Positions 2,770 to 23,400 of a stretch of 64,000 nt of DNA are shown piece after piece. Each line of letters begins with the position of its first letter. The first letter of the stretch is position 1. A program made the translations under genes and the position numbers. This DNA comes from Escherichia coli (GTDB taxonomy: Bacteria; Pseudomonadota; Gammaproteobacteria; Enterobacterales; Enterobacteriaceae), in the NCBI RefSeq assembly GCF_024298765.1, contig NZ_CP101210.1; one strand, written 5' to 3'. The notes below the pieces were generated by a model, which worked only from the letters and a program-made list of their open reading frames with translations, searched no databases and was not told the DNA's origin.

Positions 2770-3557
2770 TGCTGGCAGCCAGGGCACCAGTAAAACGGGC
2801 GAGATGACAGCGTGGTTTTCTCAATGATGCCGCCACAGCGTTCGCACAGTTCGCCATCACGATGAAAAACCTTAAAGCGAAACAGCGCCCCATGATGCTT
2901 ATTCTCATCCACCTGCCCCCGCGTAGCGTAGGAAAATCGAGGAATATCCAGTAACGCGTGTGCGAGTGCATCCAGTTGCGCCGCATTGAGATCTTTCGCT
3001 TTATGATTTCCAGTCAACCCAACCTGCCAGAGGATCTCCACCCGCAAATAATTGCCAAGCCCAGCCAGAAACGCCTGATCGAGCAGTAATCCAGCAAACT
3101 GACGGTTACGAAAGCGCGGCGACAATAACCGTTCCTTTACCACCTCCGGCGTCAGATTCGGATCCAGCACATCGGGGCCGACTCGTTGTAAAAACGGATG
3201 CGTGATCAGTTGTTCCGGCGTCAACATCTCAATATCCGAGGCGCTATAAAGCAGAATAGTTTTGTCAACCGTTTGCAGTTTTACCCGCAATACTCGCATA
3301 GTCTGCGGCTCTTCGCCGGTATCAACCACGCGCCAGACGCCGTAAAGCTGATTATGGCTGTAGAGCGTTAAGTCGTTGGAAAAATGAGTTAACAACGCCT
3401 TACCACGCGTTTCCACATGGGTAACGTGTTGACCGATAAGTTGTGATTGATAAGGTTTTAACTGCGGGAAGGCAAACCAGACATCAGTTAGTGGTTTGCC
3501 TTTGATCGCCGCCTCCAGGTTATCCGCTGCACGGCGGATCTCCGGGCCTTCAGGCAT
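2766..3557 (-). CDS. nei: endonuclease VIII (Fpg/Nei family DNA glycosylase)
   Basis: 263 aa, N-terminal MPEGPEIRR and C-terminal zinc-finger CxxC...CxxC. Confidence 0.9.
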
Positions 3558-3592
3558 GGTGATATCCTTTTTTCATTCTTTATTAAACGGGG

Positions 3593-4327
3593 TTATGCTG
3601 CGACAACAATCCCCTTTTCGGCAAATGTAGAGCGTAGTCGGCGGGCGAATGCCAGTGCGTGCTCGCCGTCGCCATGCAGGCAGACCGTTTGCGCCGTGAC
3701 CGTTGCCCATTCGCCGGTGATGCTTTTGACTCTGCCGTGTTGCACCATCTCCAGCGTTTGCGCCAGCGCCTGTTCTTCGTTTTCAATCAACGCGCCTGGC
3801 TGGCTTCGCGGCACCAGCGAACCGTCTGCCTGATAACCGCGATCGGCAAACACTTCCTCGCGCGTTGTCAGGCCATATTGCTTGCCTGCACGAATCAGCT
3901 CGCTTCCTGCCAGCCCGACGAGAATCAATGCCGGATCGCAAGCGTATACCGCTCTGGCGATGGCGTCTGCCAGTTGTGCCTCTTTCGCTGCCTGGTTGTA
4001 TAACATGCCGTGAGGTTTGACATGACGCATAACACCGCCTTGCGCACGGGCAATCGTTGCCAGCGCGCCAATTTGATACAGCGTCTGGGCGTAAACGGTT
4101 TCTGGCGGCAGCTGCATGACGCTGCGCCCAAAATTTTCCCTGTCGGGAAAACTCGGGTGAGCGCCAATCGCAACACCATTTTTTATTGCTTCACGCACGC
4201 AAGCCTGCATGGTTTGCGCATCGCCTGCATGAAATCCACAGGCAATATTGGCAGAGGAAACCAGCGTTAATAGCTCTGCGTCGCTGGCATAGCCTTCGCC
4301 CAGATCGGCGTTCAGGTCAATTTTCAT
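3593..4327 (-). CDS. pxpA: 5-oxoprolinase subunit A (LamB/YcsF family)
   Basis: 244 aa, [13 protein letters not shown]-terminus; in pxpB-pxpC-pxpA cluster. Confidence 0.85.
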
Positions 4328-5249
4328 TGTGCAGCCGCCACGCTAATTGTTCGAAATAACGTTGCTGATCTTGCCGTGCTTTCAGTGCTTCTTCCAGTGA
4401 ACACTGGACAAAATGAATCGGCTGACCGAGCGGAATTTGCGCCAGATGGTACATATCAGCCTCGATGATACAGGCAATACGCGGATAACCACCGGTGGTC
4501 TGTGCGTCGTTCATCAACACAATCGGCTGCCCGTTATGTGGCACCTGCACCACGCCCGGTAACAAACCGTGAGATAACAGTTCGCGATCGGTGGTGCGTT
4601 TTAAAATTTGCCCCTGTAAGCGATAGCCCATTCGGTTACTTTGCGAGCTAAGCTGCCAGGGCGAACGCCAGAATGCATCCTGCGAGGCGCGATCGAACTC
4701 ATGATATTCCGGCCCCGGCAAGGCGCGAATGCGGTTGCCCCACAGCAGCTGTTTAACGCCCTGCGCTTCCATAAAATCACGCTTCGATTTGCCAATCGGG
4801 AGTCGGTCACCATCCTTTAGTAAACGGCCTTCCAGCCCGCCAATCCCCACTTTGAGATCGGTGCTGCATGACCCCATTACCGGCGGAACATCAATACCAC
4901 CCGCGACCGCCAGATAACTGCGCATCCCGTGCTGCGGGCGTTTAAGCGTTAAACGCTGACCTGCTTTCATCGGCAATCGCCAGCCGGTCCAGACGGCGTT
5001 ATCATCCAGCCGCGCTTCGCAACCGGCCCCCGTCAGAGCAAACCACCCATCAGTTTCGAACTCAACCGTTAACTGACCGAGCGTGATCTCCAGCGCGGGG
5101 GCATTGGCGTCATTACCCACCAGTAGGTTAGCAATGCGTAACGCGGGCATATCCAGTGCGCCGCAGTGGCTGATACCCGACTGGCGAAAACCGTGACGAC
5201 CGCCATCCTGCACAGTGGTATACATGCCCGCACGAATAATCTTCAGCAT
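4317..5249 (-). CDS. pxpC: 5-oxoprolinase subunit C
   Basis: 310 aa ORF overlapping neighbours by a few nt (operon). Confidence 0.8.
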
Positions 5250-5899
5250 ACTCCCTCCTTCTGCGGTACAAAGCGCACGCTGTCTCCCGGACGTAATAAG
5301 ATGGGTTCGTCACGCGCCGGATCAAACAGGCTGAGTGAGGTATGACCAATCAACTGCCAGCCACCCGGCGTTGCCAGCGGATAAACACCGGTCTGCGGCC
5401 CGCCGATCCCGACAGAACCTGCCGGAACGAGCAAGCGCGGTTCAGCGCGCCGTGGCGTGTGTAGTTGTTCCGGCAAACTCCCGAGATACGGGAAGCCCGG
5501 TTGAAAACCTAAAAACCAGACCACGTATTCCACGGAGGAGTGCAATTCAACAACCTGTTTTTCGCTCAACCCACAATGCGCCGCGACCACCGCCAAATCC
5601 GGTCCGCCTGCGCCACCGTAAACCACCGGAATTTCAATAAAACGAGACTCCGGCTCCAGCGCCTCACTCTCCTCCCACCAGCGTTGCAAACGCTCTATGG
5701 CATCCAGCGCCAGCGACTCAGGATTACGTAAAATCACCGTGATATTGTTCATGCCAGGAATGGCTTCAACCACATTCGGCATATCCACCAGACGCTGCGC
5801 CAGTCGCCAGATCCGTTTCTGGCTAGCCAGCGTCACCGGCGGTTCCAGCTCCAGCACTACCGCCGTTTCACCTATCAGATAACAACGCGCTCGTTGCAC
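5243..5899 (-). CDS. pxpB: 5-oxoprolinase subunit B
   Basis: 218 aa ORF, first gene of cluster. Confidence 0.8.
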
Positions 5900-5921
5900 T
5901 TTCGATCCCTCTGATTATTCG

Positions 5922-6665
5922 TTATGCAGGATTAGGAATATCAATAAAGGTCACATCAAGATCGGTATTTTCATTCAGCCACTCGCTCAATGCGCGAATA
6001 CCACCGCGTTCAGTGGCATGGTGACCCGCAGCATAAAAATGCAATCCCTGCTCGCGGGCTGAATGAATGGTCTGTTCAGAAACTTCGCCAGTAATAAAAG
6101 CATCCACGCCAAAACGCGCGGCGCTATCGATAAAACTTTGCCCGCCGCCCGTGCACCAGGCGACGCGCTGGACCACCTCAGGTCCGGTATCGCCACACCA
6201 TAACGGCTTACGTCCCAGACGCGCTTCAATCCAGGAGGCCAGTTCCAGTCCCGGCACAGGCATGGTCAGTTCGCCCCACGGCACCAACGGCTCAATTTCG
6301 CCCATGACCGTGATCCCCAGTAACGCCGCCAGCTGTGCGTTATTGCCCAGCTCAGGATGTGCGTCAAGCGGCAAATGCCAGCCATACAGGTTGATATCAT
6401 TCGCCAGCAACGTTTTTAAACGGTTACGCTTCATGCCGCGAATGACCGGGGATTCGCCTTTCCAGAAGTAGCCATGATGCACAATGACCGCATCCGCGCC
6501 CAGACGCACCGCTTCATCGAGCAAAGCCTGGCTGGCAGTGACACCGGTAACAATTTTTTGCACCGTCTCTTTGCCTTCCACCTGCAAACCATTCGGCGCG
6601 TAATCACTAATCGCCGCGCTGTTCAGTTTTTCGTTAATCAGTTGTTCCAGTTCGGTGTTTTTCAT
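5922..6665 (-). CDS. ybgI: Nif3-family metal-binding protein
   Basis: 247 aa, recognised by sequence. Confidence 0.8.
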   Translation of the reverse strand: MKNTELEQLINEKLNSAAISDYAPNGLQVEGKETVQKIVTGVTASQALLDEAVRLGADAVIVHHGYFWKGESPVIRGMKRNRLKTLLANDINLYGWHLPLDAHPELGNNAQLAALLGITVMGEIEPLVPWGELTMPVPGLELASWIEARLGRKPLWCGDTGPEVVQRVAWCTGGGQSFIDSAARFGVDAFITGEVSEQTIHSAREQGLHFYAAGHHATERGGIRALSEWLNENTDLDVTFIDIPNPA

Positions 6666-6752
6666 CTTCGCGCCTTCCGTATTCTGATAGCTACACCGTT
6701 AACATAGCGTTACCTCGCCTGTTCGTCGATAGCCAATCTTTTGACATATTAA

Positions 6753-8417
<1,665 letters not shown>

Positions 8418-8459
8418 TAGACCAGCACCGATGCCTGATAAGACGCTCACTGCGTTTTA

Positions 8460-9878
8460 TCAGGCTCCTTTCCTCGCTTCTTCGTACGCTGCCAGCGTTC
8501 GCAGCCTTGCCTCTTTGTGATCAACTATCGGTTGCGGATAATCCAGCGTCATACCTGCTTTCTGCGCCCACTTCCACGGCTCATGCACCACTTTCCCTGG
8601 CACATCGCGCAGTTCCGGTAGCCACTGGCGGATAAACTCGCCTTCGCGGTCAAATTTCTCGCCCTGGGTTGTCGGGTTAAAAATACGAAAATACGGCGCT
8701 GCATCGGTTCCGGTTGAAGCGGCCCACTGCCAGCCACCGTTATTAGCTGCCAAATCACCATCAATCAGCTGCGACATGAAATATCGCTCGCCTTCGCGCC
8801 AGTCGATCAACAAATCTTTCACCAGAAAACTGGCTGTAATCATCCGTAGCCTGTTATGCATCCAGCCAGTGCTGTTAAGCTGACGCATGGCAGCATCGAC
8901 AATCGGGTATCCCGTTTTGCCTTCCTGCCAGGCCTGTAAATGTGCGGGATTGCTCTGCCACTGCACACGATCCGTCCAGGCAATAAACGGACAATGTTTA
9001 CACAACGAGGGGTAATACGTCATCAGATGACGGTAGAACTCGCGCCAGATCAGCTCACTAAGCCAGACACTACCGGCCCCACCGTCCAGCGCCTGCGGCT
9101 GTTCCGCCAACAAGCGATGCAAACACTGGCGAGGCGATAACCCGCCCGTTGCCAGGCTGGCGGACAAACGACTGGTGCCTTCCACTGCCGGAAAATCTCG
9201 TTGTTGCTCATATTCTCCGGCACCGTTCTGGCAAAACTGGCGTAATTGCGCAATCGCAGCTTTTTCTTCCACCGGGAAATGCGCAGTATCGAAAGACTGA
9301 CGAGGATAATTCAGCGTAATGGATGGCGCGGGCTTTATCGATCCGCTACTACGAACTTTTGGTGCAGCGACGCACTCCGGCATCCCTTCCCGCAGCCGTT
9401 TCAGCCAGGCATTTTGAAAAGGCGTAAAGACTTTGTACATCTCATGATTGTCAGTCATCACCGCGCCAGGCGGCAGGATCACGCTGTCATCAAATCCTTC
9501 ACACACCACGTTACGCAGCGTTCTCTCAACCTGCACATCCCGCGCCCGCTCATTCACCTCATACTGATAGTTATAAAAAAGATGAGTAACGCTGTTTTCC
9601 GCGCACACCTGTTTAACTATTTCGACGCTGGCGGCAAAGTCATCCACTTCACGGAACAATAAAGGAATGCCTTTTTCCGCCAGCGCGATTTGTAGCCCGT
9701 TCAGTTGAGCATTGATAAGTTCAGCCTGACGCGGCGACATGTTATGCGCCGCCCACTGGCGTGGTGTAGCGATATACAACGCCAGCACGCTTGCAGACGA
9801 ATTGCGGCAGGCGGCAGCCAGCGCGAGATTATCGTGCTGACGTAAATCCTGGCGAAACCAGACCAGATGGGTAGTCAT
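8460..9878 (-). CDS. phr: deoxyribodipyrimidine photolyase
   Basis: 472 aa, MTTHLVWFRQDLR N-terminus; overlaps ybgA start. Confidence 0.9.
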   Translation of the reverse strand: MTTHLVWFRQDLRQHDNLALAAACRNSSASVLALYIATPRQWAAHNMSPRQAELINAQLNGLQIALAEKGIPLLFREVDDFAASVEIVKQVCAENSVTHLFYNYQYEVNERARDVQVERTLRNVVCEGFDDSVILPPGAVMTDNHEMYKVFTPFQNAWLKRLREGMPECVAAPKVRSSGSIKPAPSITLNYPRQSFDTAHFPVEEKAAIAQLRQFCQNGAGEYEQQRDFPAVEGTSRLSASLATGGLSPRQCLHRLLAEQPQALDGGAGSVWLSELIWREFYRHLMTYYPSLCKHCPFIAWTDRVQWQSNPAHLQAWQEGKTGYPIVDAAMRQLNSTGWMHNRLRMITASFLVKDLLIDWREGERYFMSQLIDGDLAANNGGWQWAASTGTDAAPYFRIFNPTTQGEKFDREGEFIRQWLPELRDVPGKVVHEPWKWAQKAGMTLDYPQPIVDHKEARLRTLAAYEEARKGA

Positions 9879-10384
9879 AAAACTCCTGAATGGCGCAAGT
9901 TAATCACACACGGCCAAAGTTCGAAATAACGCTGCACTGAAAGCCAGGCGTCAGGATAAAGCGCCATATAGTGTTTGATACGCATCAGCGGCGCAAGAAG
10001 TGGTTGCTCGCCACGGCGATAACTGTCGATAAGCGCCGCCAGCTGCTGGCGTTCTGTGGAATCAATATGTGGGCGAAAATATCCCTGAACGTGCATCAAA
10101 ACGTTAGTATGATCACGCCGGTTGGCAGGGTGAGAAAGCAAAACAATCACGCGTTGGCGGTACTGGTTGTAATAGTCATCCAGACTTTGCCACCGGTGAA
10201 TATCAGCCACAAACGGGCCAAGTTTGCGGTATTCCGGCTGGGAATGCGCCAGAAAGACGAGTTTATAACGGCTGTGATAATCGAGAAGCGCCCCGCGCGT
10301 TAAGCCATGTTCTTTCAGTCGATATAGCTCATAAATCGCGAAGATGCGGATTAGGGTGCTTTCATCAAATCGTTGCTGATTCAT
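9875..10384 (-). CDS. ybgA: DUF1722-family protein
   Basis: 169 aa ORF upstream of and overlapping phr. Confidence 0.8.
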   Translation of the reverse strand: MNQQRFDESTLIRIFAIYELYRLKEHGLTRGALLDYHSRYKLVFLAHSQPEYRKLGPFVADIHRWQSLDDYYNQYRQRVIVLLSHPANRRDHTNVLMHVQGYFRPHIDSTERQQLAALIDSYRRGEQPLLAPLMRIKHYMALYPDAWLSVQRYFELWPCVINLRHSGVL

Positions 10385-10461
10385 TACTGCTCCTGAACGG
10401 TTTACAGGAGTAAGTGTAGACGTTGGGAAATGAAATTTGTGAAGTTAATCCTGTTGTAGCA

Positions 10462-11439
10462 GGGCAAGATTACGAAAGCCCGCTCCCCGTAAGGACTGAC
10501 GCCAGGTAGTTTCTGTCCATAGCTGCCCTTTCTATTCAAACGTGAAATCAATAAGTTCATCAGGGACATCACAAACAATATGAAGACGGGTTTCTTCTCT
10601 GCCGTGACTCTTTTCACTAATTGAGTAACTGTCGTGCTCTGGATTATTTAATTCTTTCAGCGGAAATTTTTCCTCAAAGGCTTTATTAAGCCGCCACCTG
10701 ATTTCCTTTTACAGCGAATAAATAATCACCTCCCTGTTTTTGTATCTTCTCTGCAATATCTTTCTGGCAACTCATCGCATCAGTTGTGATGATTTTTCCT
10801 TTAATATCCAGCATGTTAAGAAGTTCAGGGATAGCTGTAATTTCATTGGATTTCTCATCCGTCCTGATCTGTCCGATGACCAGACTGTGCATTGTTGAGA
10901 ACGCACTAATGACATGAATCGCTCCCCTGCGGCGACTCTTGTCATAAGAATGCCGGAGCGTTTTTCCATCAATTGCAATAACGTCTTTATCATCTGAAGA
11001 ATGGCAGTCACGCATCCAGTTAATAAAGCACTCGTGAAATTTTGAAGGACTGATACAGGATACAACTCTGGCGATGGTATCGTGAACAGGAATACCATTT
11101 TAAAAATCACCATATTGTTTTAAAAAATCGAGATGTGTTTCCCCAAAATCCTCTATATCTTCCCAACCATCTGCACCAGAAATAACGGCACAAATAGTCA
11201 ACAGTAGAATATCCGACAATTTATGTTCCACTTTTCCAGGATTGTCTGTAATCGGGAATAACAGAAATATGTTCCATCAATTTTTTAAGTACCATTTTGT
11301 TCTCCTTAATTATGTAAGGAGTATTTGATCATGTATAAGCAATAAAAAACAGCTTTAGGTAATGAGGAATATCTCAATTTTTAAACATAAAATGCGAATT
11401 GTCTAGTACAAAAAAGCAGCGTTACGTGATCTTTCCCTG
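10462..11439 (-). mobile_element. degenerate ISAs1-family (H-repeat) copy with internal deletion and frameshift
   Basis: Both ends match the ends of the intact copy at 13087..14388 (CAGGGxAAGATTACG... and ...CGTTACGTGATCTTTCCCTG); about 320 bp missing from the 3' part; ORF fragments 10686..11015 and 10772..11113. Confidence 0.7.
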
Positions 11440-11532
11440 AGAGGTACAGGAACTGCGGGAGGAACTTTATCAGGTTAAACAGGGGTTAAGGGGATGCGGA
11501 ACGGGATGTTTAGTGTGCTGAACGAAAGCTAA
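11440..11532 (+). pseudogene. 3' fragment of SymE-family gene, truncated by the ISAs1 copy
   Basis: ...QELREELYQVKQGLRGCGTGCLVC-type tail homologous to the end of 14396..14725; begins exactly at the IS end. Confidence 0.6.
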
Positions 11533-11534
11533 AT

Positions 11535-11572
11535 AATAAAAAAGCCGGGAAGATCTTATCTTTCCCGGCCAT
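11535..11572. terminator. hairpin + T-run between convergent genes
   Basis: aagccgggaagatcttatctttcccggc inverted repeat. Confidence 0.5.
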
Positions 11573-11587
11573 CTTGCCATACATTAA

Positions 11588-12022
11588 TTATTTATGAATA
11601 TAATATAACTGAACATCATATTCATTATCACTTAAAACTATTAGTCGATCGGGAAATGTAAATGCTAATGAAAGATCATATGTTTCATTTATCGAAAACA
11701 AACTCAATATGAAATTTGAAAAATTTTCGACATGAAGAGATATGCAAACATCTCCATTATAGAATATATTGCAAAGAATATCTTTTTTCACATTCAGTGT
11801 ACTTTCAACATCTCTCGCTAGATCATTAATATTTAAAGGTAAATTGAAAACTCTCCTTTCAATAATATTATCGGTTTTATTTATTGCCATTAGCATTTCT
11901 CGATGCCACATGAAGTCATTCTTACGTAAGAATGATACATCAAAGGAAGTGACACCATTTAATTTAGAAGCATAATCTTTTGCTCTAATTAAATTTAATT
12001 TATCTTCAAGGCTAATTTTCAT
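11588..12022 (-). CDS. putative immunity protein of orphan Rhs C-terminal toxin
   Basis: 144 aa ORF starting 11 nt inside the 3' end of the toxin stub; position-based call only. Confidence 0.5.
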   Translation of the reverse strand: MKISLEDKLNLIRAKDYASKLNGVTSFDVSFLRKNDFMWHREMLMAINKTDNIIERRVFNLPLNINDLARDVESTLNVKKDILCNIFYNGDVCISLHVENFSNFILSLFSINETYDLSLAFTFPDRLIVLSDNEYDVQLYYIHK

Positions 12023-12470
12023 AATATATATGATGATCCTTAGTTACAGGGTCATTGATCTTCTGATATCTATCACTTTTGAAATCGTATGTTCTAGGAT
12101 CAGCGCCCGGTTTAGGTTGTCCTGCATGTGCGTGAGGGCCAGGTGCCCTAGGATCTGCCGTGTGCTCGACTACAACTTTCTTACGTCCGTAGGCATCTGT
12201 ATATTCATAATATCGCCCATGAGACCCTAAATCTTCCGAATATTTATAATTTGTTTGTCCCCTTCTTCTAGGATCATTTCCAACGGTCCATTGCCTATTA
12301 GGTTGCTGTGAACGAGGTATGCCCGCAAGATCTTTTGCTTTATTTAGTGCCTGACGACGGTTTCTTAATTCACCACATTTAAGACCAAGCGGATCTATCC
12401 AGCTTACTGGATTAGGCGCGTAAGCATATAAGTTTAGCCCCCCCGCCAGCCCTATCGGGTCGGGTTACGT
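12012..12470 (-). pseudogene. orphan rhs C-terminal stub: last ~25 core codons (..PIGLAGGLNLYAYAPNPVSWIDPLGL) plus ~125-aa toxin tip, no start codon
   Basis: Hand translation of minus strand; in-frame stop immediately upstream of the core remnant; absent from ORF track because it lacks a start. Confidence 0.6.
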
Positions 12471-12634
12471 AAATGTTCCACAGTCCGAGTCGTAGTACCT
12501 CAGAAGGTTGCAGTGCAATCCCGCCTTGCGACATCAAGGCATAGTTTCAGAAAAAGTAAGGAGCAATCACCATACCCCAATTCACTGGGTGCTAAATAAT
12601 ATCTGGTAACATCCCTTACTTCAATTCTATTTCA

Positions 12635-13030
12635 TTACAACTTCTTTACTTTCCATATTCTTTGCGCAGCTAAAAAAGATACTCCTTTGAACCAAGACGC
12701 ACATTCAATAACTTGTTCCCATGAATATATTTTATGTGAGCTAAATTTTATCGATTCATCTTGGTTCATTATCTCAATAAAATAATATCCTTTATTATAA
12801 TCTCTTTTTTCTATTCTATCTTCAGCTCTTGCCGAACGTATAGAAATAACACAATCATCTAATAAACAAAATCTTTTCTTTATAATCGCATCATCTTGGT
12901 TCCATGGATTTGTACTTGCCATTTGTTCTGATTGTTTCAGCTCATTCACTACTGTATACCAAATAGCTTCGGTATCACTTGCCTTTGCATTCTCTCTATC
13001 AGACTCGGATCTAAATATAATTTTGTCCAT
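12635..13030 (-). CDS. putative orphan immunity protein (cognate toxin replaced by ISAs1)
   Basis: 131 aa ORF; about 20 codons of an upstream ORF end in TAA overlapping its ATG (TAAAATG) just before the IS end. Confidence 0.4.
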   Translation of the reverse strand: MDKIIFRSESDRENAKASDTEAIWYTVVNELKQSEQMASTNPWNQDDAIIKKRFCLLDDCVISIRSARAEDRIEKRDYNKGYYFIEIMNQDESIKFSSHKIYSWEQVIECASWFKGVSFLAAQRIWKVKKL

Positions 13031-13086
13031 TTTAATAATCCAAATGTAAATTACTTAAAATACCCTCTGCCTCATTCCAGGCATTG

Positions 13087-14388
13087 ACATGGGAACCCAG
13101 GGAAAGATTACGAAAGCCCGCTCCCAGCAAGGACTGACGCCAGATAGTTTCTGTCCATGGCTGCTTTTCGCATCTTACGTCTTAACCCTGCCTTGAATAC
13201 CTTATCATTCGTCAAAATATTAATAGCGATGTGCCGTATCCCTGAAAATAATTCTGCTGCATTTCCTCTTCTTATTTTGCAGTCGTCTTCATTCATTACC
13301 ACGTCCAGACGCCAGTGCAGCTTATTCTCCACGTGCCAGTGGTTTCGGATTGCTGTGGCGAACTTCTCTGCGGTTAAATCAGCAGAACTGATATAATATC
13401 TGACCGTCATTTCTGGCTCTTTCTTTTGTTCTGCTATTATTGACCGAAAGGAGACTGCCACGCATAATTTCTTCAGACCTTTCCATTCAAACGTGAAATC
13501 AATAAGTTCATCAGGGACATCGCAAACAATATGAAGACGGATTTCTTCTCTGCCGTGACTTTTTTCACTAATTGCGTAACTGTCATGCTCTGGATTATTT
13601 AATTCTTTCAGTGGGAATTTTTCCTCAAAGGCTTTATTAAGCCGCCCCTGATTTCCTTTTACAGCGAATAAATAATCACCGCCCTGTTTTTGTATCTTCT
13701 CTGCGATATCTTTCTGGCACCCCATCGCATCAGTTGTGATAATTTTTCCTTTAATATCCAACATGTTAAGAAGTTCAGGGATAGCTGTGATCTCATTGGA
13801 TTTCTCATCCGTCCTGATCTGTCCGATGACCAGACTGTGCATTGTTGAGAACGCACTAATGACATGAATCGCTCCCCTGCGGCGACTCTTGTCATAAGAA
13901 TGCCGGAGCGTTTTTCCATCAATTGCAATAACGTCTTTATCATCTGAAGAATGGCAGTCACGCATCCAGTTAATAAAGCACTCGTGAAATTTTGCAGGAC
14001 TGATACAGGATACAACTCTGGCAATGGTATCGTGAACAGGAATACCATTTTCAAAATCACCATATTGCTTCAAAAAATCGAGATGTGTTTCCCCAAAATC
14101 CTCTATATCTTCCCAGCCTTCTGCACAAGAAATAACGGCACAAATAGTCAACAGTAGAATATCCGACAATTTATGTTCCACTTTCCAGGCTTGTCTGTAA
14201 TCGGGGATAATAGAAATATGTTCCATCAATTTTTTAAGTTCCATTTTGTTCTCCTTAATTATGTAAGGAGTATTTGACCATGTATACGCAATAAAAAACA
14301 GCTTCAGGTAATGAGGAATATCTCAATTTTTAAACATAAAATGCGAATTATTTAGTACAAAAAAGCAGCGTTACGTGATCTTTCCCTG
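13087..14388 (-). mobile_element. ISAs1-family insertion sequence (H-repeat), apparently intact
   Basis: About 1.3 kb; imperfect terminal inverted repeats; single 378-aa transposase ORF. Confidence 0.8.
13108..14244 (-). CDS. ISAs1-family transposase (H-repeat-associated protein)
   Basis: 378 aa, [32 protein letters not shown]..., matches Rhs-associated H-rpt proteins. Confidence 0.9.
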
Positions 14389-14395
14389 GTTAATC

Positions 14396-14725
14396 ATGGC
14401 TGAACACGATATTACGCCAGAAATCACCATTTCCAAAACACAGCGCCGCTATAAAGTCGGCTATGTCAGAGCCCGCCACATAAACAGCAAAACCTACATG
14501 ACCACGTACTACTCACGACACCCCAGCCTGAACCTCAAGGGCGACTGGCTGAAAGAGGCCGGATTTGATACCGGGCGGGGTGTCACGGTGAAGATTTCGG
14601 AGGGGTGCCTGACCATCATCGCTGACAGTGACGAGGTGCAGGAACTGCGGGAGGAACTTTATCAGGTTAAACAGGTGGTTAAGGGGATGCGGAGCGGGAT
14701 GTTTAGTGTGCTGAACGATAATTAA
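14396..14725 (+). CDS. SymE-family (type I toxin-like, AbrB-fold) protein
   Basis: 109 aa; LKGDWLKEAGFDTGRGVTVKISEGCLTIIA resembles the SymE core [30 protein letters not shown] (from memory); start trimmed from ORF 14375. Confidence 0.7.
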   Translation: MAEHDITPEITISKTQRRYKVGYVRARHINSKTYMTTYYSRHPSLNLKGDWLKEAGFDTGRGVTVKISEGCLTIIADSDEVQELREELYQVKQVVKGMRSGMFSVLNDN

Positions 14726-14727
14726 AT

Positions 14728-14772
14728 AATAAAAAGCCGGGAAGATTTAATTTTCTTTCCGGCTTTGTCTAA
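14728..14772. terminator. bidirectional hairpin terminator
   Basis: aagccgggaagatttaattttctttccggctt between convergent genes. Confidence 0.5.
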
Positions 14773-14776
14773 TTAA

Positions 14777-15145
14777 TTATTCAGGAAATTTTCTATTTTT
14801 ATATGATGACCATAAGTGAGTGATCGACCAAGAGTTTTCCTTTCCGAGTACAAAACTTTTGGAGATTATCTCAATATCATCAGATATACGCGAAGATATT
14901 TCAGAATTATTAATCACCCTGAATGAGTATTTAAATGCCTTTTCTCGCAAGGAATCAATAAACTCAATATCATCATCCTGAAAACTTTCCTTATCTAATG
15001 AATTAAACTCACTCATCCAGCAATCATCAAACTCCGGTTCATCTCTTGAGTCTAATGCACTATCAACATTTAATGATTTAAGAAAATCAAAAAATGACGG
15101 GGTGGATAAACAGTTATCAATTTCAATTAGCTTATTATTAATCAT
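14777..15145 (-). CDS. putative immunity protein of orphan Rhs toxin
   Basis: Acidic ~122 aa protein; ATG overlaps toxin stop in TGATG arrangement. Confidence 0.55.
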   Translation of the reverse strand: MINNKLIEIDNCLSTPSFFDFLKSLNVDSALDSRDEPEFDDCWMSEFNSLDKESFQDDDIEFIDSLREKAFKYSFRVINNSEISSRISDDIEIISKSFVLGKENSWSITHLWSSYKNRKFPE

Positions 15146-15790
15146 CACATTAACCCTTGTCCTTTGAGCCAAACCTCTATTAAATCAACAGCCTTGGATG
15201 GTGTCACATTAGTACCTAGCGTATAAGTTCCATTTGGAGATTTAACATCAACTCTGATGTCATCTAATTTTGAATACGCTTTTCTGTAAGCATCAAATAA
15301 CTCTTTATCCGAACCAAGGAAATCACCTTGTCTTGGACCTATCACATCTCGTTCCGCATGATGTAAACGCCAGTGATTATGTTCTGGATTTTCTCCTCTA
15401 GGGAATAATGTTGGGCGAGTTTTATCAGATCGGGAAACTTCAAACGGACGTCCTTTAGATTTACGAACCGCAGGAACATGATGTCCAGATTCACTCACGC
15501 CCATACACTTCTTCGTTAATCCAAGGGGATCGATCCAGCTTAACGGATTCGGTGCATAAGCATACAGGTTTAACCCGCCTCTTAGCCCTATCGGGTCCGT
15601 TACCATGAACCGCCCGACATCCGGATCATAGTACCTGTGCAGATTGTAATGCAGCCCCGTTTCCCTGTCGAGGTACTGTCCCTGGTAGCGCAGGTTCTGC
15701 TCCACCCCGCCGTGGTCCTTCTCCTGTATCGTGTTACCCCAGACCTGATACCCCGTCTCCCACACGATTTTCCCGTCACTGTCCGTCATC
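15145..15790 (-). pseudogene. orphan rhs C-terminal fragment: ~90 core codons + DPLGL + ~120-aa toxin tip with GHH signature
   Basis: ORF 15145..15825; core part near-identical to main rhs (MTDSDGKIVWETGYQVWGN...DPIGLRGGLNLYAYAPNPLSWIDPLGL); 5' end cut by ISAs1. Confidence 0.65.
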
Positions 15791-15792
15791 TC

Positions 15793-17084
15793 CAGGGCAA
15801 GATTACGAAAGCCCGCACCCCGCAAGGACTGACGCCAGATAGTTTCTGTCCATGGCTGCTTTTCGCATCTTACGTCTTAACCCTGCCTTGAATACCTTAT
15901 CATTCGTCAAAATATTAATAGCGATGTGCCGTATCCCTGAAAATAATTCTGCTGCATTTCCTCTTCTTATTTTGCAGTCGTCTTCATTCATTACCACGTC
16001 CAGACGCCAGTGCAGCTTATTCTCCACGTGCCAGTGATTTCGGATCGCTGTGGCGAACTTTTCTGCGGTTAAATCAGCAGAACTGATATAATATCTGACC
16101 GTCATTTCTGGCTCTTTCTTTTGTTCTGCTATTATGGACCGAAAGGAGACTGCCACGCATAATTTCTTCAGTCCTTTCCATTCAAACGTGAAATCAATAA
16201 GTTCATCAGGGACATCACAAACAATATGAAGACGGGTTTCTTCTCTGCCGTGACTCTTTTCACTAATTGAGTAACTGTCGTGCTCTGGATTATTTAATTC
16301 TTTCAGCGGAAATTTTTCCTCAAAGGCTTTATTAAGCCGCCACCTGATTTCCTTTTACAGCGAATAAATAATCACCTCCCTGTTTTTGTATCTTCTCTGC
16401 AATATCTTTCTGGCAACTCATCGCATCAGTTGTGATGATTTTTCCTTTAATATCCAGCATGTTAAGAAGTTCAGGGATAGCTGTAATTTCATTGGATTTC
16501 TCATCCGTCCTGATCTGTCCGATGACCAGACTGTGCATTGTTGAGAACGCACTAATGACATGAATCGCTCCCCTGCGGCGACTCTTGTCATAAGAATGCC
16601 GGAGCGTTTTTCCATCAATTGCAATAACGTCTTTATCATCTGAAGAATGGCAGTCACGCATCCAGTTAATAAAGCACTCGTGAAATTTTGCAGGACTGAT
16701 ACAGGATACAACTCTGGCAATGGTATCGTGAACAGGAATACCATTTTCAAAATCACCATATTGCTTCAAAAAATCGAGATGTGTTTCCCCAAAATCCTCT
16801 ATATCTTCCCAGCCTTCTGCACCAGAAATAACGGCACAAATAGTCAACAGTAGAATATCCGACAATTTATGTTCCACTTTCCAGGCTTGTCTGTAATCGG
16901 GGACAATAGAAATATGTTCCATCAATTTTTTAAGTTCCATTTTGTTCTCCTTAATTATGTAAGGAGTATTTGATCATGTATAAGCAATAAAAAACAGCTT
17001 TAGGTAATGAGGAATATCTCAAATCTTAAACATAAAATGCCAATTATTTAGTACAAAAAAGTAGCGTTACGTGATCTTTCCCTA
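15793..17084 (-). mobile_element. ISAs1-family copy, transposase frameshifted
   Basis: Same ends as the copy at 13087..14388; ORF split into 16332..16940 and 15803..16156; 1-bp difference (gccgccacctgattt vs gccgcccctgattt). Confidence 0.75.
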
Positions 17085-17089
17085 AAACG

Positions 17090-17555
17090 CAGACCCAGTT
17101 GTGCATAGTACACATGGTACGCAACAGCCTGCGGTTCGTGACGTGGAAAGACTATAAAGCGGTAACCCGTGACCTGAAACAGGTTTACCGCGCGGCCACG
17201 GAAGAAGGCGTGTTGCAGGCGCTGGATGCGTTCGGGAAGGAATGGGATGCACGGTACCCGCAGATAAGTCGCAGCTGGCGGGCAAACTGACCGAATGTTG
17301 CCACCTTCTTCGTGTACCCGGAGGCGATCCGAAAGGTTATCTACACCACTAACGCAATCGAATCGCTGAATAGCGTCATCAGACATGCGATAAAGAAAAG
17401 GAAAGTGTTCCCGACAGATGAATCGGTGAAAAAAGTGGTGTGGCTGGCTATCCAGTCAGCCTCACAGAAATGGACGATGCCACTTCAGGACTAGCGGATA
17501 GCCATGAGTCGCTTTATTATCGAGTTCGGTGACCGCCTTGACGGTCACTTCTGAG
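17090..17555 (+). pseudogene. IS256-family (Mutator-type) transposase, 3' remnant with frameshift
   Basis: ORFs 17099..17290 and 17312..17494 carry ...VHMVRNSLRFVTWKDYKAV... and ...IYTTNAIESLNSVIRHAIKKRKVFPTDESVKKVVWLAIQSASQKWTMP... Confidence 0.6.
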
Positions 17556-17619
17556 AAAGGCATTTACACAGAATGATGGACAGGCTCAACGGGAAGGCTA
17601 CATGCCTTCCCATTTTATA

Positions 17620-17946
17620 TTAATCACCCGGCTTCTCCCAACATTTTATCTTTTCTATTTCTCTCTCAATATCATCCATATCATCATCTCCAAGATCGGT
17701 ATTAAAATTTTCAGTAATAACCCTTCTTATTTCAGCCAACCGATGTGTAATATTTTTATCATCAATAAATTTAGTGGTTTCTTTAAAGTAAGAATTCAAC
17801 AATTTATCATCAATAACGTTCTGCTCTATACCATTGAAATAATACCTTGCAATATTCTTAAGTGATATCAATATGTACTCTACCTCACTTAGAATATAAA
17901 GGGCATCCTTCCCGGGTATATTAATTACATCATTGTTTTTATTCAT
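17620..17946 (-). CDS. putative immunity protein of orphan Rhs toxin
   Basis: 108 aa ORF starting 1 nt after the orphan toxin stop. Confidence 0.55.
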   Translation of the reverse strand: MNKNNDVINIPGKDALYILSEVEYILISLKNIARYYFNGIEQNVIDDKLLNSYFKETTKFIDDKNITHRLAEIRRVITENFNTDLGDDDMDDIEREIEKIKCWEKPGD

Positions 17947-17947
17947 A

Positions 17948-19735
17948 TTATTTACGCCGAGTTATTTTTGCATTATCAGAAAGAACAATATCACCTTTCA
18001 CAGTCAATTCATCTATATGGTATCGAGGGTTTGTTACCCACTCTAATTGCTCGTTAGGTACATCTGTTTCCACATAATCTCTACCTTTCCCACGACCTAT
18101 TTGATATTTCGCCTCTATGTCTACTTGACTGAGTGGTTTTTTATTCGCAGGTTCCAAATATACACGACCGTTATCATGCGCCTTAATTATCCCACTTTCA
18201 GCAATCGCATTTGAACCTTTACGATTAGTATAATGCCGCACACGAGTAGTTCCATTACAGAGCTCTTTTTTTAATCCGAGTGGATCAATATATTTCAGCG
18301 GATTAGGCGCATAAGCATATAAGTTCAACCCACCCGCCAGCCCTATCGGATCCGTTACAATGAACCGCCCGACATCCGGATCATAGTACCTGTGCAGATT
18401 GTAATGCAGCCCTGTTTCCCTGTCGAGGTACTGTCCCTGGTAGCGCAGGTTCTGCTCCACCCTGCCGTGGTCCTTCTCCTGTATCGTGTTACCCCAGACC
18501 TGATACCCCGTCTCCCACACGATTTTCCCGTCACTGTCCGTCATCTCTTCCGGCGCGCCGTTCACATCCGTGTGAAAATACAGTATCCGGTTCGGGCCCT
18601 CTTTGCCCGCCTTATCCACCCGCGCCAGCGGTTCATAACTCCCCGGGTCCCTGTAGATGTACAGGCTGTCTGTTCCCTCCGGCCTGCTCTCCTGCGCCAG
18701 CCGCATTCCGTCCCATAAAAATGCCGTCCGGTTGTACGGTTTACCGTCAGGGCTGATGTGCTGTTTTTCCGTCCGCCTCCCCAGCGCATCGTACACATAC
18801 CGGTACGTTCCCCGCGCTGTCGTCACTTCCACCATCCGGTGTTCCGCATCATAACGGTAACTCTGCGTGCCGCTCCGCCCCTCCTTTTCCACCGCACGGC
18901 CAAATTCGTCGTAACGGTAGTGCACACCACGGTAAGACATCAGCCGGTTGAACGGCACCACGCTGTTTTCTGCCGTGGCCCTTTCCCCCGCGCGCCGCCC
19001 CAGCAGGTTTCCCGCCGCGTCGTACTGCCAGCTCGCCAGATACCCCTCATCCTCCGAGCGGCACGCCGTGATGCGCCCCGTGGGGTCGTAGAAGTAATCC
19101 GTTTCCCCCCGCCGGCTGTGCCGCGTCTTCAGCAGTTCATCCTCGCCACTGTAGCTGTACTGCCGGTCCGTGAACGTCTCCGGTACCACCCCGCGCATCC
19201 CGCTGTATGTCTCCCTGCGCTTCAGCCGCCCGGCGGGGTCGTAAAGCTGCCGCGTGCTCAGTCGCCCCTGACTTCTGAGCACTTCACGGTGCAGGGCGTC
19301 ACGAGTGAACTCGCTGATGACCTCCCGGTCCAGATTTATCTGCTGGAGATGGCCGCTGCCGTAGTACAGATGACGCTGCGTTCTGCCGTCCGGAAAGGTG
19401 GTGGCTGTCCGGTTGCTGAGTTCATCGTACTGATGGGTCAGGACGCCCTGCGCCGTCTCCTCAGTCAGCATCCGCCCCAGTCTGTCGTAACTGAAACGGA
19501 TAATCTCCGGTGCGTCTGTTTCCCCGGCATCCGACCGTCGGCGGCGGATTTCCAGTAACTGGTCTGCCGCATCATGGACGTATTCCGTACGGCTATCGGC
19601 TGTCTCCTTTGCCGTGAGCCGGCCCGCCGCATCACGTGCCAGCCGGTGGCGGATTTCACCGCCCCGGTCCCCGGTGAACACCACTTCCGTGACCGCGTTC
19701 AGCGCGTTGTAGCGGTACGTCTGGCGGCAGCCGTC
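17948..19735 (-). pseudogene. orphan rhs fragment: ~490 core codons + ~105-aa alternative toxin tip, 5'-truncated
   Basis: ORF 17948..19753; homology to main rhs starts at ...CRQTYRYNALNAV; 18392-19735 is near-identical to 20910-22253. Confidence 0.75.
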
Positions 19736-19764
19736 GTGCTGCCAGCGCAGCATCTGCCCAACCG

Positions 19765-19978
19765 CAGCGACACGCCGGTGATCAAAATCAGCGCCAAATG
19801 GCTGAGAGAAGCGGGATTTGAGATCGGCACGGGCGTTACCGTGAAGATCTCGGAAGGCTGCCTGATCCTGCTTGCAGATAACAACGGAGTACAGGAACTG
19901 CGCAGGGAACTTTATCAGGTTAAACAGTCTGTTAAGGGGATGCGGAACGGGATGTTTAGTATGCTGAACGATAATTAA
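19765..19978 (+). pseudogene. SymE-family gene, C-terminal fragment
   Basis: ...IKISAKWLREAGFEIGTGVTVKISEGCLILLADNNGVQELRRELYQVKQSVKGMRNGMFSMLNDN homologous to 14396..14725; N-terminus lost at the orphan rhs junction. Confidence 0.6.
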
Positions 19979-19984
19979 ATAATA

Positions 19985-20020
19985 AAAAGCCGGGAAGATT
20001 TAATTTCTTACCCGGCTTTT
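19985..20020. terminator. bidirectional hairpin terminator
   Basis: aaaagccgggaagatttaatttcttacccggctttt. Confidence 0.5.
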
Positions 20021-20043
20021 GATAACTTAATAATATTATAATC

Positions 20044-20424
20044 CTAAATCAATCTTTTTTTTAATTCCCTTATTTCAGGAGTTAATGCAAAACTGTCTTC
20101 TAAAGATTCGTCATCCAAGGCCCAGTAATTAATAAGATCTATATGATTTTTATAATTATCAAGCAGAGTGTTGAGTGCTTTTACAATAACTTTATCTGAA
20201 GGAGGTACTCCAGAAGATAATAAATCATTACAGACATCAAGGGCTAAAGTCATTAATTCATTCTTCCCTTTTTGTGAGTAGCCATTATTTAAATATGCAG
20301 CAATATATTTACTTAACCACTCTTTAGTTCGATATTTTTCAGGCAGTTCATAAGCCCAATCTTGTGTAAACTTATCACTCACTGGTACACCAAGTTCACT
20401 ACAGATTTTATCTATTTCATTCAT
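20044..20424 (-). CDS. putative immunity protein of the main Rhs toxin
   Basis: 126 aa ORF 18 nt downstream of rhs stop; position-based call. Confidence 0.55.
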   Translation of the reverse strand: MNEIDKICSELGVPVSDKFTQDWAYELPEKYRTKEWLSKYIAAYLNNGYSQKGKNELMTLALDVCNDLLSSGVPPSDKVIVKALNTLLDNYKNHIDLINYWALDDESLEDSFALTPEIRELKKRLI

Positions 20425-20441
20425 ATATATCCTTCATTATT

Positions 20442-23400
20442 TTAGTTGTCGTGTGATGAATTGAATGGGAACGATGTACGTACAGAACCGTCGGGTTTTA
20501 CAACAACCCTTGCCATATCTGGAACTACCTCTGTCCCATCAGGTAAATAACCTCGACTTTTTATATTTGTAGGCAATGGCACATCATGCACACCTGGTCC
20601 TTTTTTGGCAACAGAAGCAATAAAATCAGCAGCAGAATTATCATCGAGATATTGTCCAACTTGATGACCTTTATTTCTGGCACGATCAATTAACTGATTT
20701 GGTTTCATTTTCTGTCCGTGTTCAGAAAAGGTGTGACCGTATGTAGGCTTACTTTTTGGATTTCCCCATTTGAAGTCAGATTTAGGACACAATCCAAGTG
20801 GGTCGATCCATGACAGTGGATTAGGTGCATACTGATATAAGTTTAACCCGCCTCTCAGCCCTATCGGGTCCGTTACCATGAACCGCCCGACATCCGGATC
20901 ATAGTACCTGTGCAGATTGTAATGCAGTCCCGTTTCCCTGTCGAGGTACTGTCCCTGGTAGCGCAGGTTCTGCGCCACCCCGCCGTGGTCCTTCTCCTGT
21001 ATCGTGTTACCCCAGACCTGATACCCCGTCTCCCACACGATTTTCCCGTCACTGTCCGTCATCTCTTCCGGCGCGCCGTTCACATCCGTGTGAAAATACA
21101 GTATCCGGTTCGGGCCCTCTTTGCCCGCCTTATCCACCCGCGCCAGCGGTTCATAACTCCCCGGGTCCCTGTAGATGTACAGGCTGTCTGTTCCCTCCGG
21201 CCTGCTCTCCTGCGCCAGCCGCATTCCGTCCCATAAAAATGCCGTCCGGTTGTACGGTTTACCGTCAGGGCTGATGTGCTGTTTTTCCGTCCGCCTCCCC
21301 AGCGCATCGTACACATACCGGTACGTTCCCCGCGCTGTCGTCACTTCCACCATCCGGTGTTCCGCATCATAACGGTAACTCTGCGTGCCGCTCCGCCCCT
21401 CCTTTTCCACCGCACGGCCAAATTCGTCGTAACGGTAGTGCACACCACGGTAAGACATCAGCCGGTTGAACGGCACCACGCTGTTTTCTGCCGTGGCCCT
21501 TTCCCCCGCGCGCCGCCCCAGCAGGTTTCCCGCCGCGTCGTACTGCCAGCTCGCCAGATACCCCTCATCCTCCGAGCGGCACGCCGTGATGCGCCCCGTG
21601 GGGTCGTAGAAGTAATCCGTTTCCCCCCGCCGGCTGTGCCGCGTCTTCAGCAGTTCATCCTCGCCACTGTAGCTGTACTGCCGGTCCGTGAACGTCTCCG
21701 GTACCACCCCGCGCATCCCGCTGTATGTCTCCCTGCGCTTCAGCCGCCCGGCGGGGTCGTAAAGCTGCCGCGTGCTCAGTCGCCCCTGACTTCTGAGCAC
21801 TTCACGGTGCAGGGCGTCACGAGTGAACTCGCTGATGACCTCCCGGTCCAGATTTATCTGCTGGAGATGGCCGCTGCCGTAGTACAGATGACGCTGCGTT
21901 CTGCCGTCCGGAAAGGTGGTGGCTGTCCGGTTGCTGAGTTCATCGTACTGATGGGTCAGGACGCCCTGCGCCGTCTCCTCAGTCAGCATCCGCCCCAGTC
22001 TGTCGTAACTGAAACGGATAATCTCCGGTGCGTCTGTTTCCCCGGCATCCGACCGTCGGCGGCGGATTTCCAGTAACTGGTCTGCCGCATCATGGACGTA
22101 TTCCGTACGGCTATCGGCTGTCTCCTTTGCCGTGAGCCGGCCCGCCGCATCACGTGCCAGCCGGTGGCGGATTTCACCGCCCCGGTCCCCGGTGAACACC
22201 ACTTCCGTGACCGCGTTCAGCGCGTTGTAGCGGTACGTCTGGCGGCAGCCGTCCGGATTTATCTGCTCCGCCAGACGGTCCAGCACGTCATGGCGGAACC
22301 GGTAGCTTTCTCCGTTCTCGTTTGTCAGCGTGACCAGACGCCCGTAAGCATCGTACCCGAACGCCGTCCTGCGCCCCGTCGCGTCTGTCCGGCTGCGCAC
22401 CCGGCCCTGCCCGTCCCGCTGCCAGCGCGTTATCCTCCCCATCGGGCTGGTGTACTTCACCAGCCTGCCCGCCGCGTCCGACTGGTAATTCACCGTGCGG
22501 CCGTCCGCCAGTATCACCTCCGTCAGGTGGCCGCTGTCGTCATACCCGTAGCGCGTGCTGTGGCTCTGCGCGTCTGTCATCCGTATCAGCCGCGTGCGTT
22601 CGTCGTAGAACCAGGCCGTCTGCGAGCCGGAACAGTCCGTGTGCCGCATGAGCTGCCCGTCTTCGTTCCACTGAAGGTATTTATTCCCCCCGCGCGCATC
22701 GGTTATCTGCACCACCTGGCCGTGGCGGTCATACTGATACCGGGTGTTCTGCTGCAGCGGGTCGGTCACCGCAAGAAGATTGCCGCGTTCATCGTACTCA
22801 CAGCACCAGCTGTTCCCCGCCGCGTCCACCTCCGTTTCCGGCTGGTGCCACACCGGGTGCCACTGTGTCTGTGCCACCCGCCCCAGCGGGTCGTGCGTCT
22901 CCGTGATATGCCCCTGCCGGTCATACACATAGCGCCATTTGCCGCCCTGCGCATCGGTCATTCCCAGTAACAGCCGTTCTTCGTCGCTCCAGCGGAACGT
23001 CGTCACCTGCCCGGCTTCGTCCTGGTACGCCGTCACCTGATTCTGCGCGTCCCACTGATGATAACGCGTGCGCCCCAGCCCGTCCGTCACGCACAGCCTG
23101 CGTGACGCCAGGCTCCACGCCAGCCGGTACTGTTCACCGCTGTCCGTGTGGTGCCCCGTCACCCGCCACGCTGCGTCATCCGGGCCTTCATACCAGCTCC
23201 ACTGGTAATAATACCCTTCGCCGCCCGGCTGGCGGTGCAGGGTCATGCAGTGGTTTTCGTCGTAAGCAAACTCGCGCAGCAGGTGTCCCGTGCTGTCGTA
23301 CACGCCGTTCAGGTCGCCGGCCTCGTCATAGCGGTAACGACGCAGCAGTAAAGGAGCCGTCTCAGGGAAATGCTGATAAATCTGTGTCACCCGCCGGGGA

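Follow-up and report, generated by a model that had tools for sequence, protein, structure and literature searches.

Rhs genes and contact-dependent inhibition (CDI) loci diversify by swapping cassettes that consist of a C-terminal toxin region (CT) and its immunity gene. The homology on the core side of these cassettes is well known, and their distal boundary has been undefined so far. Here we analyzed a 64 kb stretch of Escherichia coli DNA (contig NZ_CP101210.1 of assembly GCF_024298765.1, referred to in its entirety as the window), in which genes of the SymE family recur beside the immunity genes of an Rhs element. SymR, the antisense partner of E. coli K-12 symE, is a 77-nt cis-antisense RNA that starts next to the start codon and is transcribed from a promoter within the first codons. 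SymE of K-12 itself is now seen as a toxic DNA-binding protein that condenses the nucleoid (Thompson 2022, as summarised in PMC11894785).

In the legend to Fig. 7A of Kawano, Aravind and Storz (2007; PMC1891008), SymE-family genes stand beside haemagglutinin and RHS genes, and the same paper describes a conserved sequence upstream of some SymE genes, suggesting control by a small RNA (sRNA). symE has also been placed inside the CDI clusters of Proteus and Dickeya (PMC11278526, PMC8386352). In the relevant passages of genome papers on Erwinia, Pantoea, Proteus and Dickeya, where symE lies in or beside CDI or type VI secretion system (T6SS)/Rhs clusters, it is called unrelated or briefly speculated on. 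The first-pass annotation of this DNA, which knew of no description of SymE-like genes as standard components of Rhs elements, thus overstated the case: the association had been reported before, although no explanation was offered. Two sRNAs are relevant as well. Padalon-Brauch et al. (2008; PMC2330248) described Salmonella IsrA as cis-antisense to STM0294.1n, the two being inversely expressed; its published 5' end is LT2 339338. Shigella Ssr1 (published 5' end S. flexneri 301 286979) has an Rhs-family gene on one side and a hypothetical gene on the other (PMC4782007). For Rhs loci, Jackson et al. (2009; PMC2935791) described incoming tips that displace older ones downstream and proposed circular intermediates; the passages of that paper that were searched do not mention SymE. 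A literature search of incomplete coverage returned no paper that defines symE as a cassette boundary, analyzes its fragments or ties IsrA or Ssr1 to the SymE family.

The window corresponds to the RhsC locus of E. coli, which lies between ybfA/kdp and ybgA/phrB; near-identical loci occur in 59 complete genomes, mainly from avian and human isolates. Our best explanation, to which we assign a probability of about 0.65, is that a SymE-like gene together with its hairpin would serve as the distal flank and recombination arm of the CT/immunity cassette, that the truncated copies would be scars of serial insertion, and that the gene itself would resemble a selfish type I toxin-antitoxin (TA) module.

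SymE-like copies at the distal end of the cassettes

Three SymE-like copies, each convergent to a presumed immunity gene, had been noticed in the window, and we located all three (Table 1). The family assignment was borne out by a profile search, in which copy 2 matched the Pfam model SymE_toxin (PF08845) at E 2.5e-20 (72.7 bits, model 1-53/54, residues 16-75); the NCBI Prokaryotic Genome Annotation Pipeline (PGAP) also names these genes SymE-type. Against the NCBIfam SymE equivalog NF010128 (endoribonuclease SymE), copy 2 scored 50.3 bits, under the cut-off of 132, and a 97-aa allele and the Pectobacterium homologue scored 44-59 bits. Because the score lies below this cut-off, the window gene belongs to a paralogous subfamily of SymE and is not the K-12 orthologue. 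Intact copies of different genera are under purifying selection (nonsynonymous to synonymous substitution ratio, dN/dS, 0.13-0.48), so the SymE-like protein is kept by selection. An AlphaFold2 model built on a 12-sequence alignment (mean pLDDT 51.3, pTM 0.32) was too poor for a fold search, and a PDB profile search with the protein gave nothing at E up to 1.

The three copies are not equivalent, one being an intact gene and two being dead 3' fragments. Copy 1 carries a 1-nt frameshift and begins exactly where the inverted repeat of an H-rpt element ends (11439). In copy 3, positions 19766..19975 match residues 40-109 with 67% amino-acid identity to copy 2, and the stop lies at 19978; its allele type is the 97-aa form, which is intact in L003 and L024. 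(L-numbers denote comparison loci: L002 is E. coli M8, L004 E. coli HCP5S3_I2, L006 E. coli A25, L008 Salmonella enterica pathogenicity island SPI-6, L014 Xenorhabdus doucetiae, L034 Enterobacteriaceae bacterium UBA5654 and L040 Budvicia.) Within 52-66 bp of each copy there is a convergent minus-strand open reading frame (ORF), at 11588..12022, 14777..15145 and 20044..20424, and each of them is immediately preceded by an Rhs CT region. The five immunity ORFs of the window matched no NCBIfam family, and the convergent ones are presumed to be immunity genes by their position only.

One explanation for this recurrence would be a chance duplication confined to the locus, with no general link between SymE and Rhs. 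The only point in its favor is that copies 1 and 2 are near-identical across their last 90 bp. Copies 2 and 3, however, are different alleles, which argues that the copies are not local or recent duplicates, and SymE goes together with Rhs at four loci of E. coli and throughout Enterobacterales. We therefore consider chance duplication extremely improbable.

The hairpin is where homology between different cassettes ends. In more than 100 E. coli genomes, symE and the hairpin (query nt 1-367) are shared with L004, and the sequences diverge right beyond it. L004 and L003 are 87-100% identical in the CT, in the 144-aa immunity gene, in the hairpin and over the final ~70 bp of symE, and 23-70% identical in the symE body; the 144-aa immunity gene of the window is found at 97-100% identity in both of these, at other loci than the window's. 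The opposite arrangement, in which the symE body is shared and the immunity genes are unrelated, is seen for L004 and M8, for L003 and L024, and for L003 and window copy 3. M8 and L003 occupy the same ybgA site. Their identity is 93-100% across the flank, the leader and the initial ~50 bp of symE, and then falls abruptly to 20-70% at about codon 17. GC content is 62% in the core, ~40% in the CT, 27-31% in the immunity genes and 48-52% in symE. On the basis of these homology limits, the mosaic alleles and the GC steps, symE and the hairpin appear to form the distal conserved flank of the CT/immunity cassette, and crossovers would fall inside symE. The first-pass annotation had suggested that this flank may act as a downstream homology arm for cassette exchange. 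The mosaic alleles and the stop of homology at the hairpin favor this idea; it does not extend to all copies of the window, two of the three being dead fragments that are more plausibly scars of serial insertion than functional arms.

The annotation had also noted a hairpin common to the three copies. The motif AAAGCCGGGAAGAT does occur three times in the window, once after each copy, against a shuffle expectation of 0.02, and 0/100 shuffles reached three occurrences. The hairpins of all three copies fold at -15.4 to -20.8 kcal/mol on both strands (z -4 to -6); for copy 2 the values are -20.8 kcal/mol on the plus strand and -15.4 on the minus strand, with z of -6.1 and -5.0. The variant that follows copy 1 also follows the 144-aa immunity gene in L003 and L004. 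On the minus strand the hairpins are followed by UUUUUAUUAUUU (a U-run), so that as putative terminators they look more canonical for rhs-rhsI than for symE; weaker tails follow on the plus strand. In a consensus terminator scan, the hairpin of Salmonella L008 was flagged on the plus strand.

Spread of the module and its junctions with H-rpt elements

A symE match was present in 836 of 5426 complete E. coli genomes, at 1335 places, all chromosomal. The eight E. coli contexts that were sampled were all Rhs-linked (8/8) and fell at four sites: ybgA, ydcC/pptA, nfrA and yafV. In E. coli M8 the minimal unit consists of a DcrB-related gene, Rhs, RhsI, convergent symE and ybgA; in Salmonella SPI-6 the order is VgrG, DcrB, Rhs, immunity gene and symE; and Pectobacterium parmentieri has a repeating array with symE pieces after successive immunity genes. 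Our survey of species-representative genomes covered 78 loci with 115 copies, of which 44 were classed as close (at least 55% identity, with at least 2.5 kb of flank). A Rhs core end lay within 2.5 kb downstream of 35 of the 44 close copies, at a median gap of 818 bp, and every one of these copies was convergent (35/35). The flank seen in the window thus accompanies other Rhs elements too.

Full-length copies made up 24 of the 115. The 5' breakpoints were scattered from residue 1 to residue 89, and the 3' ends were mostly intact. An antisense core fragment was directly abutted by 13/44 truncated copies versus 0/14 copies with an intact 5' end. As L018 and L019 show, an intact copy does not always stand at the end of its array. 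The longest immunity gene-symE repeat array of the survey is that of L034, where nine SymE-like fragments are interleaved with seven Rhs core ends at 2000-16000, within ~10 kb downstream of one full Rhs gene. symE is next to CdiA fragments in L047 and L086. In Xenorhabdus doucetiae L014, the SymE-like gene stands by CdiI and the transfer genes of an integrative and conjugative element (ICE); its conserved leader is deleted and the upstream gene runs into TAATCATG (7990-8001). In Budvicia L040, SymE-like genes at 8044-8738 and 14500-15194 follow a cHTH gene and a 991-aa primase-helicase, like the islands described in 2007.

This distribution bears on the possibility, also raised in the first-pass annotation, that Rhs elements make functional use of the SymE-like gene. 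It could be an addiction module that stabilizes the immunity array, it could regulate or insulate rhsI by convergent transcription, or an antisense promoter of the IsrA type in the 3' fragments could drive the next orphan CT/immunity unit. The strictness of the convergence, the purifying selection on intact copies and the retention, in fragments, of the 3' end beside the immunity gene all speak for such a role. Most copies, however, are truncated pseudogenes, the module is absent from 85% of the E. coli genomes that have Rhs elements, and it accompanies unrelated toxins (HNH, papain-fold, RNase, CdiA) and so is not toxin-specific.

A second alternative is that the copies were spread by H-rpt/ISAs1 transposition or by H-rpt recombination, their repetition being a by-product of the insertion sequence (IS). 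H-rpt ends abut two of the three copies. At copy 1, the left inverted repeat (IRL) gatctttccctg ends at 11439 and truncates the gene. H-rpt #2 has ends at 13098 and 14388, terminal inverted repeats CAGGGAAAGAT... and a transposase ORF at 13108..14244 (378 aa; ISEc1 transposase according to PGAP), which places it in the ISAs1 family; its IRL ends 7 bp upstream of the copy 2 ATG, and the native leader has been removed. The identical H-rpt|symE junction is found in L004, a RhsE-type locus. Furthermore, Escherichia symE leaders (L002 6949-6982 and the equivalents in L003 and L024) contain 34 nt that resemble the right inverted repeat (IRR) terminus of H-rpt/ISEc1 (window 13098-13131) at 31/34 positions. 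None of 1000 shuffles scored as well, whereas for the leaders of five non-Escherichia genera 148-415/1000 shuffles equalled the score and the similarity was insignificant. We read the Escherichia leader as carrying a remnant of an H-rpt end. The converse, that the right end of H-rpt derives from a generic symE leader, had a colinear-looking alignment in its favor and was rejected, because the shuffles were significant for Escherichia leaders only. Three types of H-rpt/symE junction can thus be distinguished, at -8 and at codon 79 (both in the window) and as the leader remnant, and ISAs1-family elements flank symE remnants in L005, L007 and L021. These junctions may bear on why H-rpt elements accompany Rhs loci. 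As an account of how the copies spread, H-rpt activity nevertheless appears very unlikely to us: copy 3 has no H-rpt and joins the Rhs core directly, M8 and L003 have no intact H-rpt, immunity gene-symE repeats occur without H-rpt in Pectobacterium, Salmonella and many other genera, and in most surveyed loci IS ends with target duplications bounding the symE fragments are absent.

The 5' end of copy 3 is joined to the antisense strand (5' end) of the orphan Rhs core 17948..19753. Compared with the full 97-aa allele of L003, bases 19752-19759 (ATCTGCCC) are common to both parents, a microhomology of 8 bp that points to an illegitimate join, at least at the first formation of a unit. L006 has an independent symE|core junction, with a break that differs in both partners. 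In Salmonella L008, a near-full SymE-like gene without its own start codon and leader is fused to an antisense orphan Rhs core (7990-8050); the 118-aa ORF called there starts inside Rhs antisense sequence, and the -10 element of a predicted antisense promoter (see below) is destroyed.

We propose the following scheme for these loci. The SymE-like gene and hairpin would be the distal flank of the CT/immunity cassette in one widespread Rhs class and in some CDI loci of Enterobacterales, so that an AT-rich cassette would have the GC-rich Rhs core at one end and the hairpin with symE at the other. Homologous crossovers in the core and in symE would swap cassettes cleanly and leave mosaic symE alleles. 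Insertion without replacement would combine a core crossover with an illegitimate, microhomology-mediated join at the far end, or could proceed through the circular intermediates of Jackson et al. (2009); by either route, the old tip would be pushed downstream as an orphan and a 5'-truncated symE would be left between the units. The window copies would then represent one intact gene cut off from its leader by H-rpt and two scars of serial cassette insertion.

Predicted antisense RNAs and the probable nature of the SymE-like gene

The Rfam model isrA (RF01385) matched copy 2 at 117.6 bits, above the gathering score of 51, antisense to conserved coding sequence; copy 3 scored 34.2 bits, which is under the threshold. 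The same antisense placement was found in E. coli M8, L004, Salmonella, Citrobacter and Pectobacterium. In every locus scanned, matches to isrA ("Hfq binding RNA") occurred only antisense in mid-ORF (L008 8099-8227 and 4551-4667; L012 8072-8200; L017 10072-10200), and the model may score mainly as the reverse complement of conserved coding sequence. Rfam Ssr1 (RF02627) gave partial minus-strand matches to all three copies, at 11402-11575, 14426-14818 and 19714-20075, with 53-193 bits versus a gathering score of 820. The published Shigella Ssr1 probably overlaps an unannotated SymE-like gene. Rfam SymR gave no match at E up to 1.

That antisense transcripts are documented beside Rhs genes (Salmonella IsrA, Shigella Ssr1) adds to the case for a working part of the Rhs element, as does the Salmonella isrA match, which runs towards an orphan Rhs core. 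On the other side, neither a scan nor inspection by eye revealed a convincing sigma-70-like promoter, whether ahead of the isrA match or within the conserved 3' portion of symE. Together with the prevalence of truncated copies, this leads us to consider such a role unlikely.

Returning to the view of the gene as a selfish passenger at the cassette end, the 5' part of symE suggests a second antisense RNA. An antisense TTGGAA-N16-TAnnAT motif in codons 5-14 is kept in 15/15 intact copies, even where the encoded residues differ, and codons 1-20 show the lowest synonymous divergence. On its antisense strand, the leader is predicted to fold into two hairpins, at -40 kcal/mol versus -19 kcal/mol for the sense strand. 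In the second antisense helix, 10/14 pairs show compensatory changes, a value reached in 0/500 shuffles (5 genera, 5-7 sequences). We predict a SymR-like antisense RNA that would start at about the symE ATG. Visual inspection of the native sequence upstream of the gene in L002, L012, L032, L043 and L025, a weak test, showed no LexA box (CTG-N10-CAG).

The gene most likely represents a selfish type I TA-like module, in which an AbrB-type DNA-binding toxin would be checked by a cis-antisense RNA, and Rhs toxin delivery probably does not require it. The hairpin would end the rhs-rhsI transcript with a good U-tract, and less canonically the symE transcript, and would so insulate the convergent units.

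Several observations weigh against this interpretation. Nine of the 44 close copies are away from a Rhs core, beside CdiA genes or fragments, in cHTH-SymE/primase-helicase islands, or alone. Any trace of symE is limited to 15% of the complete E. coli genomes, and so the module is dispensable for Rhs elements in general; K-12 was matched only through the H-rpt part of the query. The crossovers in symE may merely reflect that it is the sole conserved DNA distal to the cassette, and not a selected arm. The consensus terminator scan, applied to two intact-copy regions, flagged neither the copy 2 hairpin nor that of E. coli M8. For the antisense RNA, the covariation comes from 5-7 sequences only, and in Escherichia the second antisense hairpin is replaced by the H-rpt end remnant, which sits where other genera have that hairpin. 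Because of this replacement, the antisense RNA may not work in Escherichia, the system being altered or decaying there. In copy 2 the body of the predicted antisense RNA is itself replaced by H-rpt sequence, and this only intact copy of the window, its leader lost to H-rpt, may be silent.

The RhsC locus and its relation to known systems

The window contains a Rhs element with an array of orphan CT/immunity units. Matches to the core model Rhs_assc_core (TIGR03696) lie directly before the CT of the main gene and before that of the first orphan, a sub-threshold match precedes the HNH CT, and PGAP annotates three RHS core proteins in the window. The features are collected in Table 1, in descending coordinates since the minus strand carries the rhs genes. 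Upstream of the main Rhs gene lies a DcrB-related (Eag-type chaperone-like) gene (25119-25322, minus strand), which is a truncated pseudogene in the window and is intact in M8, L003 and L004. The lone ORF 12635..13030 has no CT or core fragment before it and adjoins H-rpt #2 on the IRR side; the arrival of this IS presumably removed its toxin partner. The IS256-like fragment fills the space from H-rpt #3 to an orphan immunity gene.

Table 1. Features of the RhsC locus in the window, with the strand and the basis of each assignment.
Feature	Position	Strand	Basis or remark
Main Rhs gene	20442..25100	-	ORF position and PGAP
Presumed rhsI of main Rhs gene	20044..20424	-	by position; GC 31.2%
Hairpin 3' of copy 3	19985..20020	.	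-19.5 and -18.4 kcal/mol
Copy 3, SymE-like 3' fragment (97-aa allele type, residues 40-109)	19752..19978	+	alignment, tblastn
Orphan Rhs core fragment and CT, 5' end joined to copy 3	17948..19753	-	PGAP, ORFs, junction alignment
Immunity gene of orphan 17948..19753	17620..17946	-	
IS256/mutator-type transposase fragment with internal stop	~17086-17600		
Frameshifted H-rpt (#3)	15793-17083		
Second orphan Rhs core-CT	15145..15825	-	
Presumed rhsI convergent to copy 2, directly downstream of orphan 15145..15825	14777..15145	-	GC 30.9%
Hairpin 3' of copy 2, between symE and rhsI	14733..14766	.	two-way, terminator-like
Copy 2, intact SymE-like ORF, 109 aa (109-aa allele type)	14396..14725	+	
Candidate SymR-like antisense promoter, codons 5-14	14409..14436	-	TTGGAA, 16 nt, TAATAT; prediction
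Rfam isrA (RF01385) match inside copy 2	14467..14595	-	117.6 bits
H-rpt/ISEc1 #2, intact 378-aa transposase	13098..14388	-	sequence and annotation
Lone immunity-like ORF, 131 aa	12635..13030	-	
HNH/EndoVII Rhs-CT fragment	12012..12455	-	PGAP
Presumed immunity gene (144 aa) of HNH/EndoVII CT fragment	11588..12022	-	PGAP; core-end motif before CT
Hairpin 3' of copy 1, variant travelling with 144-aa immunity gene	11544..11569	.	fold
Copy 1, SymE-like 3' fragment (residues 80-109)	11440..11532	+	tblastn, alignment
Partial H-rpt (#1), then ybgA	up to 11439		

For annotation, a SymE-like gene with its hairpin offers a sequence landmark by which cassettes and orphan units can be delimited, and for experiments a testable recombination arm. 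It also gives a common genomic identity to two published sRNAs, IsrA and Ssr1, whose overlapped gene had stayed unannotated, and it shows the SymE family to be broader than the K-12 paradigm with its SOS link. The practical impact is moderate. Databases and one figure of 2007 already showed the association. A bolder extension, which we judge quite unlikely, is that SymE-like modules would be a dedicated and selected cassette end of Rhs and CDI loci across Enterobacterales, providing the distal arm, penalizing loss of the immunity array through TA activity, and keeping orphan immunity genes expressed through antisense transcripts, such as IsrA and Ssr1, that would extend into the following orphan unit. 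If this were true, the long-noted association between H-rpt and Rhs would stem in part from ISAs1-family elements repeatedly inserting in or near the module.

Compared with K-12 symE/SymR, the window gene encodes a small protein of the same Pfam family (about 100-113 aa for both), and its relatives have a predicted antisense RNA of ~75-80 nt in a SymR-like layout. It differs in falling well short of the NF010128 cut-off (50 bits vs 132) and, with respect to its RNA, in the missing Rfam SymR match; likewise, inspection by eye, although a weak test, showed no LexA box at its relatives. The genomic setting differs as well, since the window gene is convergent to rhsI or cdiI, whereas the K-12 gene is in the hsd/mrr region, and in the window gene a second antisense family (isrA) maps to mid-ORF. 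Toxicity and DNA binding have been shown for the K-12 protein and are putative for the window protein.

In relation to the published sRNAs, the window ORF is matched by isrA in antisense above the gathering score, and the Ssr1 matches are partial and far below theirs; the passages concerned of either paper do not call the overlapped gene SymE-family. Like the Rhs tips of Jackson et al. (2009), the locus has a full rhs gene followed by orphans made of core fragment, CT and immunity gene, with cores of variable length. In contrast to the model in the passages of that paper, which has no conserved distal gene, a SymE-like gene and hairpin mark the boundary here, truncated copies separate the orphans, and one window junction contains 8 bp of microhomology. 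Finally, in cdiA-CT/cdiI orphans and in the mafB arrays of Neisseria (cited in PMC2935791), variable modules are likewise bracketed by conserved sequence for exchange. At the RhsC locus, however, the distal flank would be a protein-coding, TA-like gene on the opposite strand, instead of repeat DNA that encodes no protein or the beginning of the next toxin gene.

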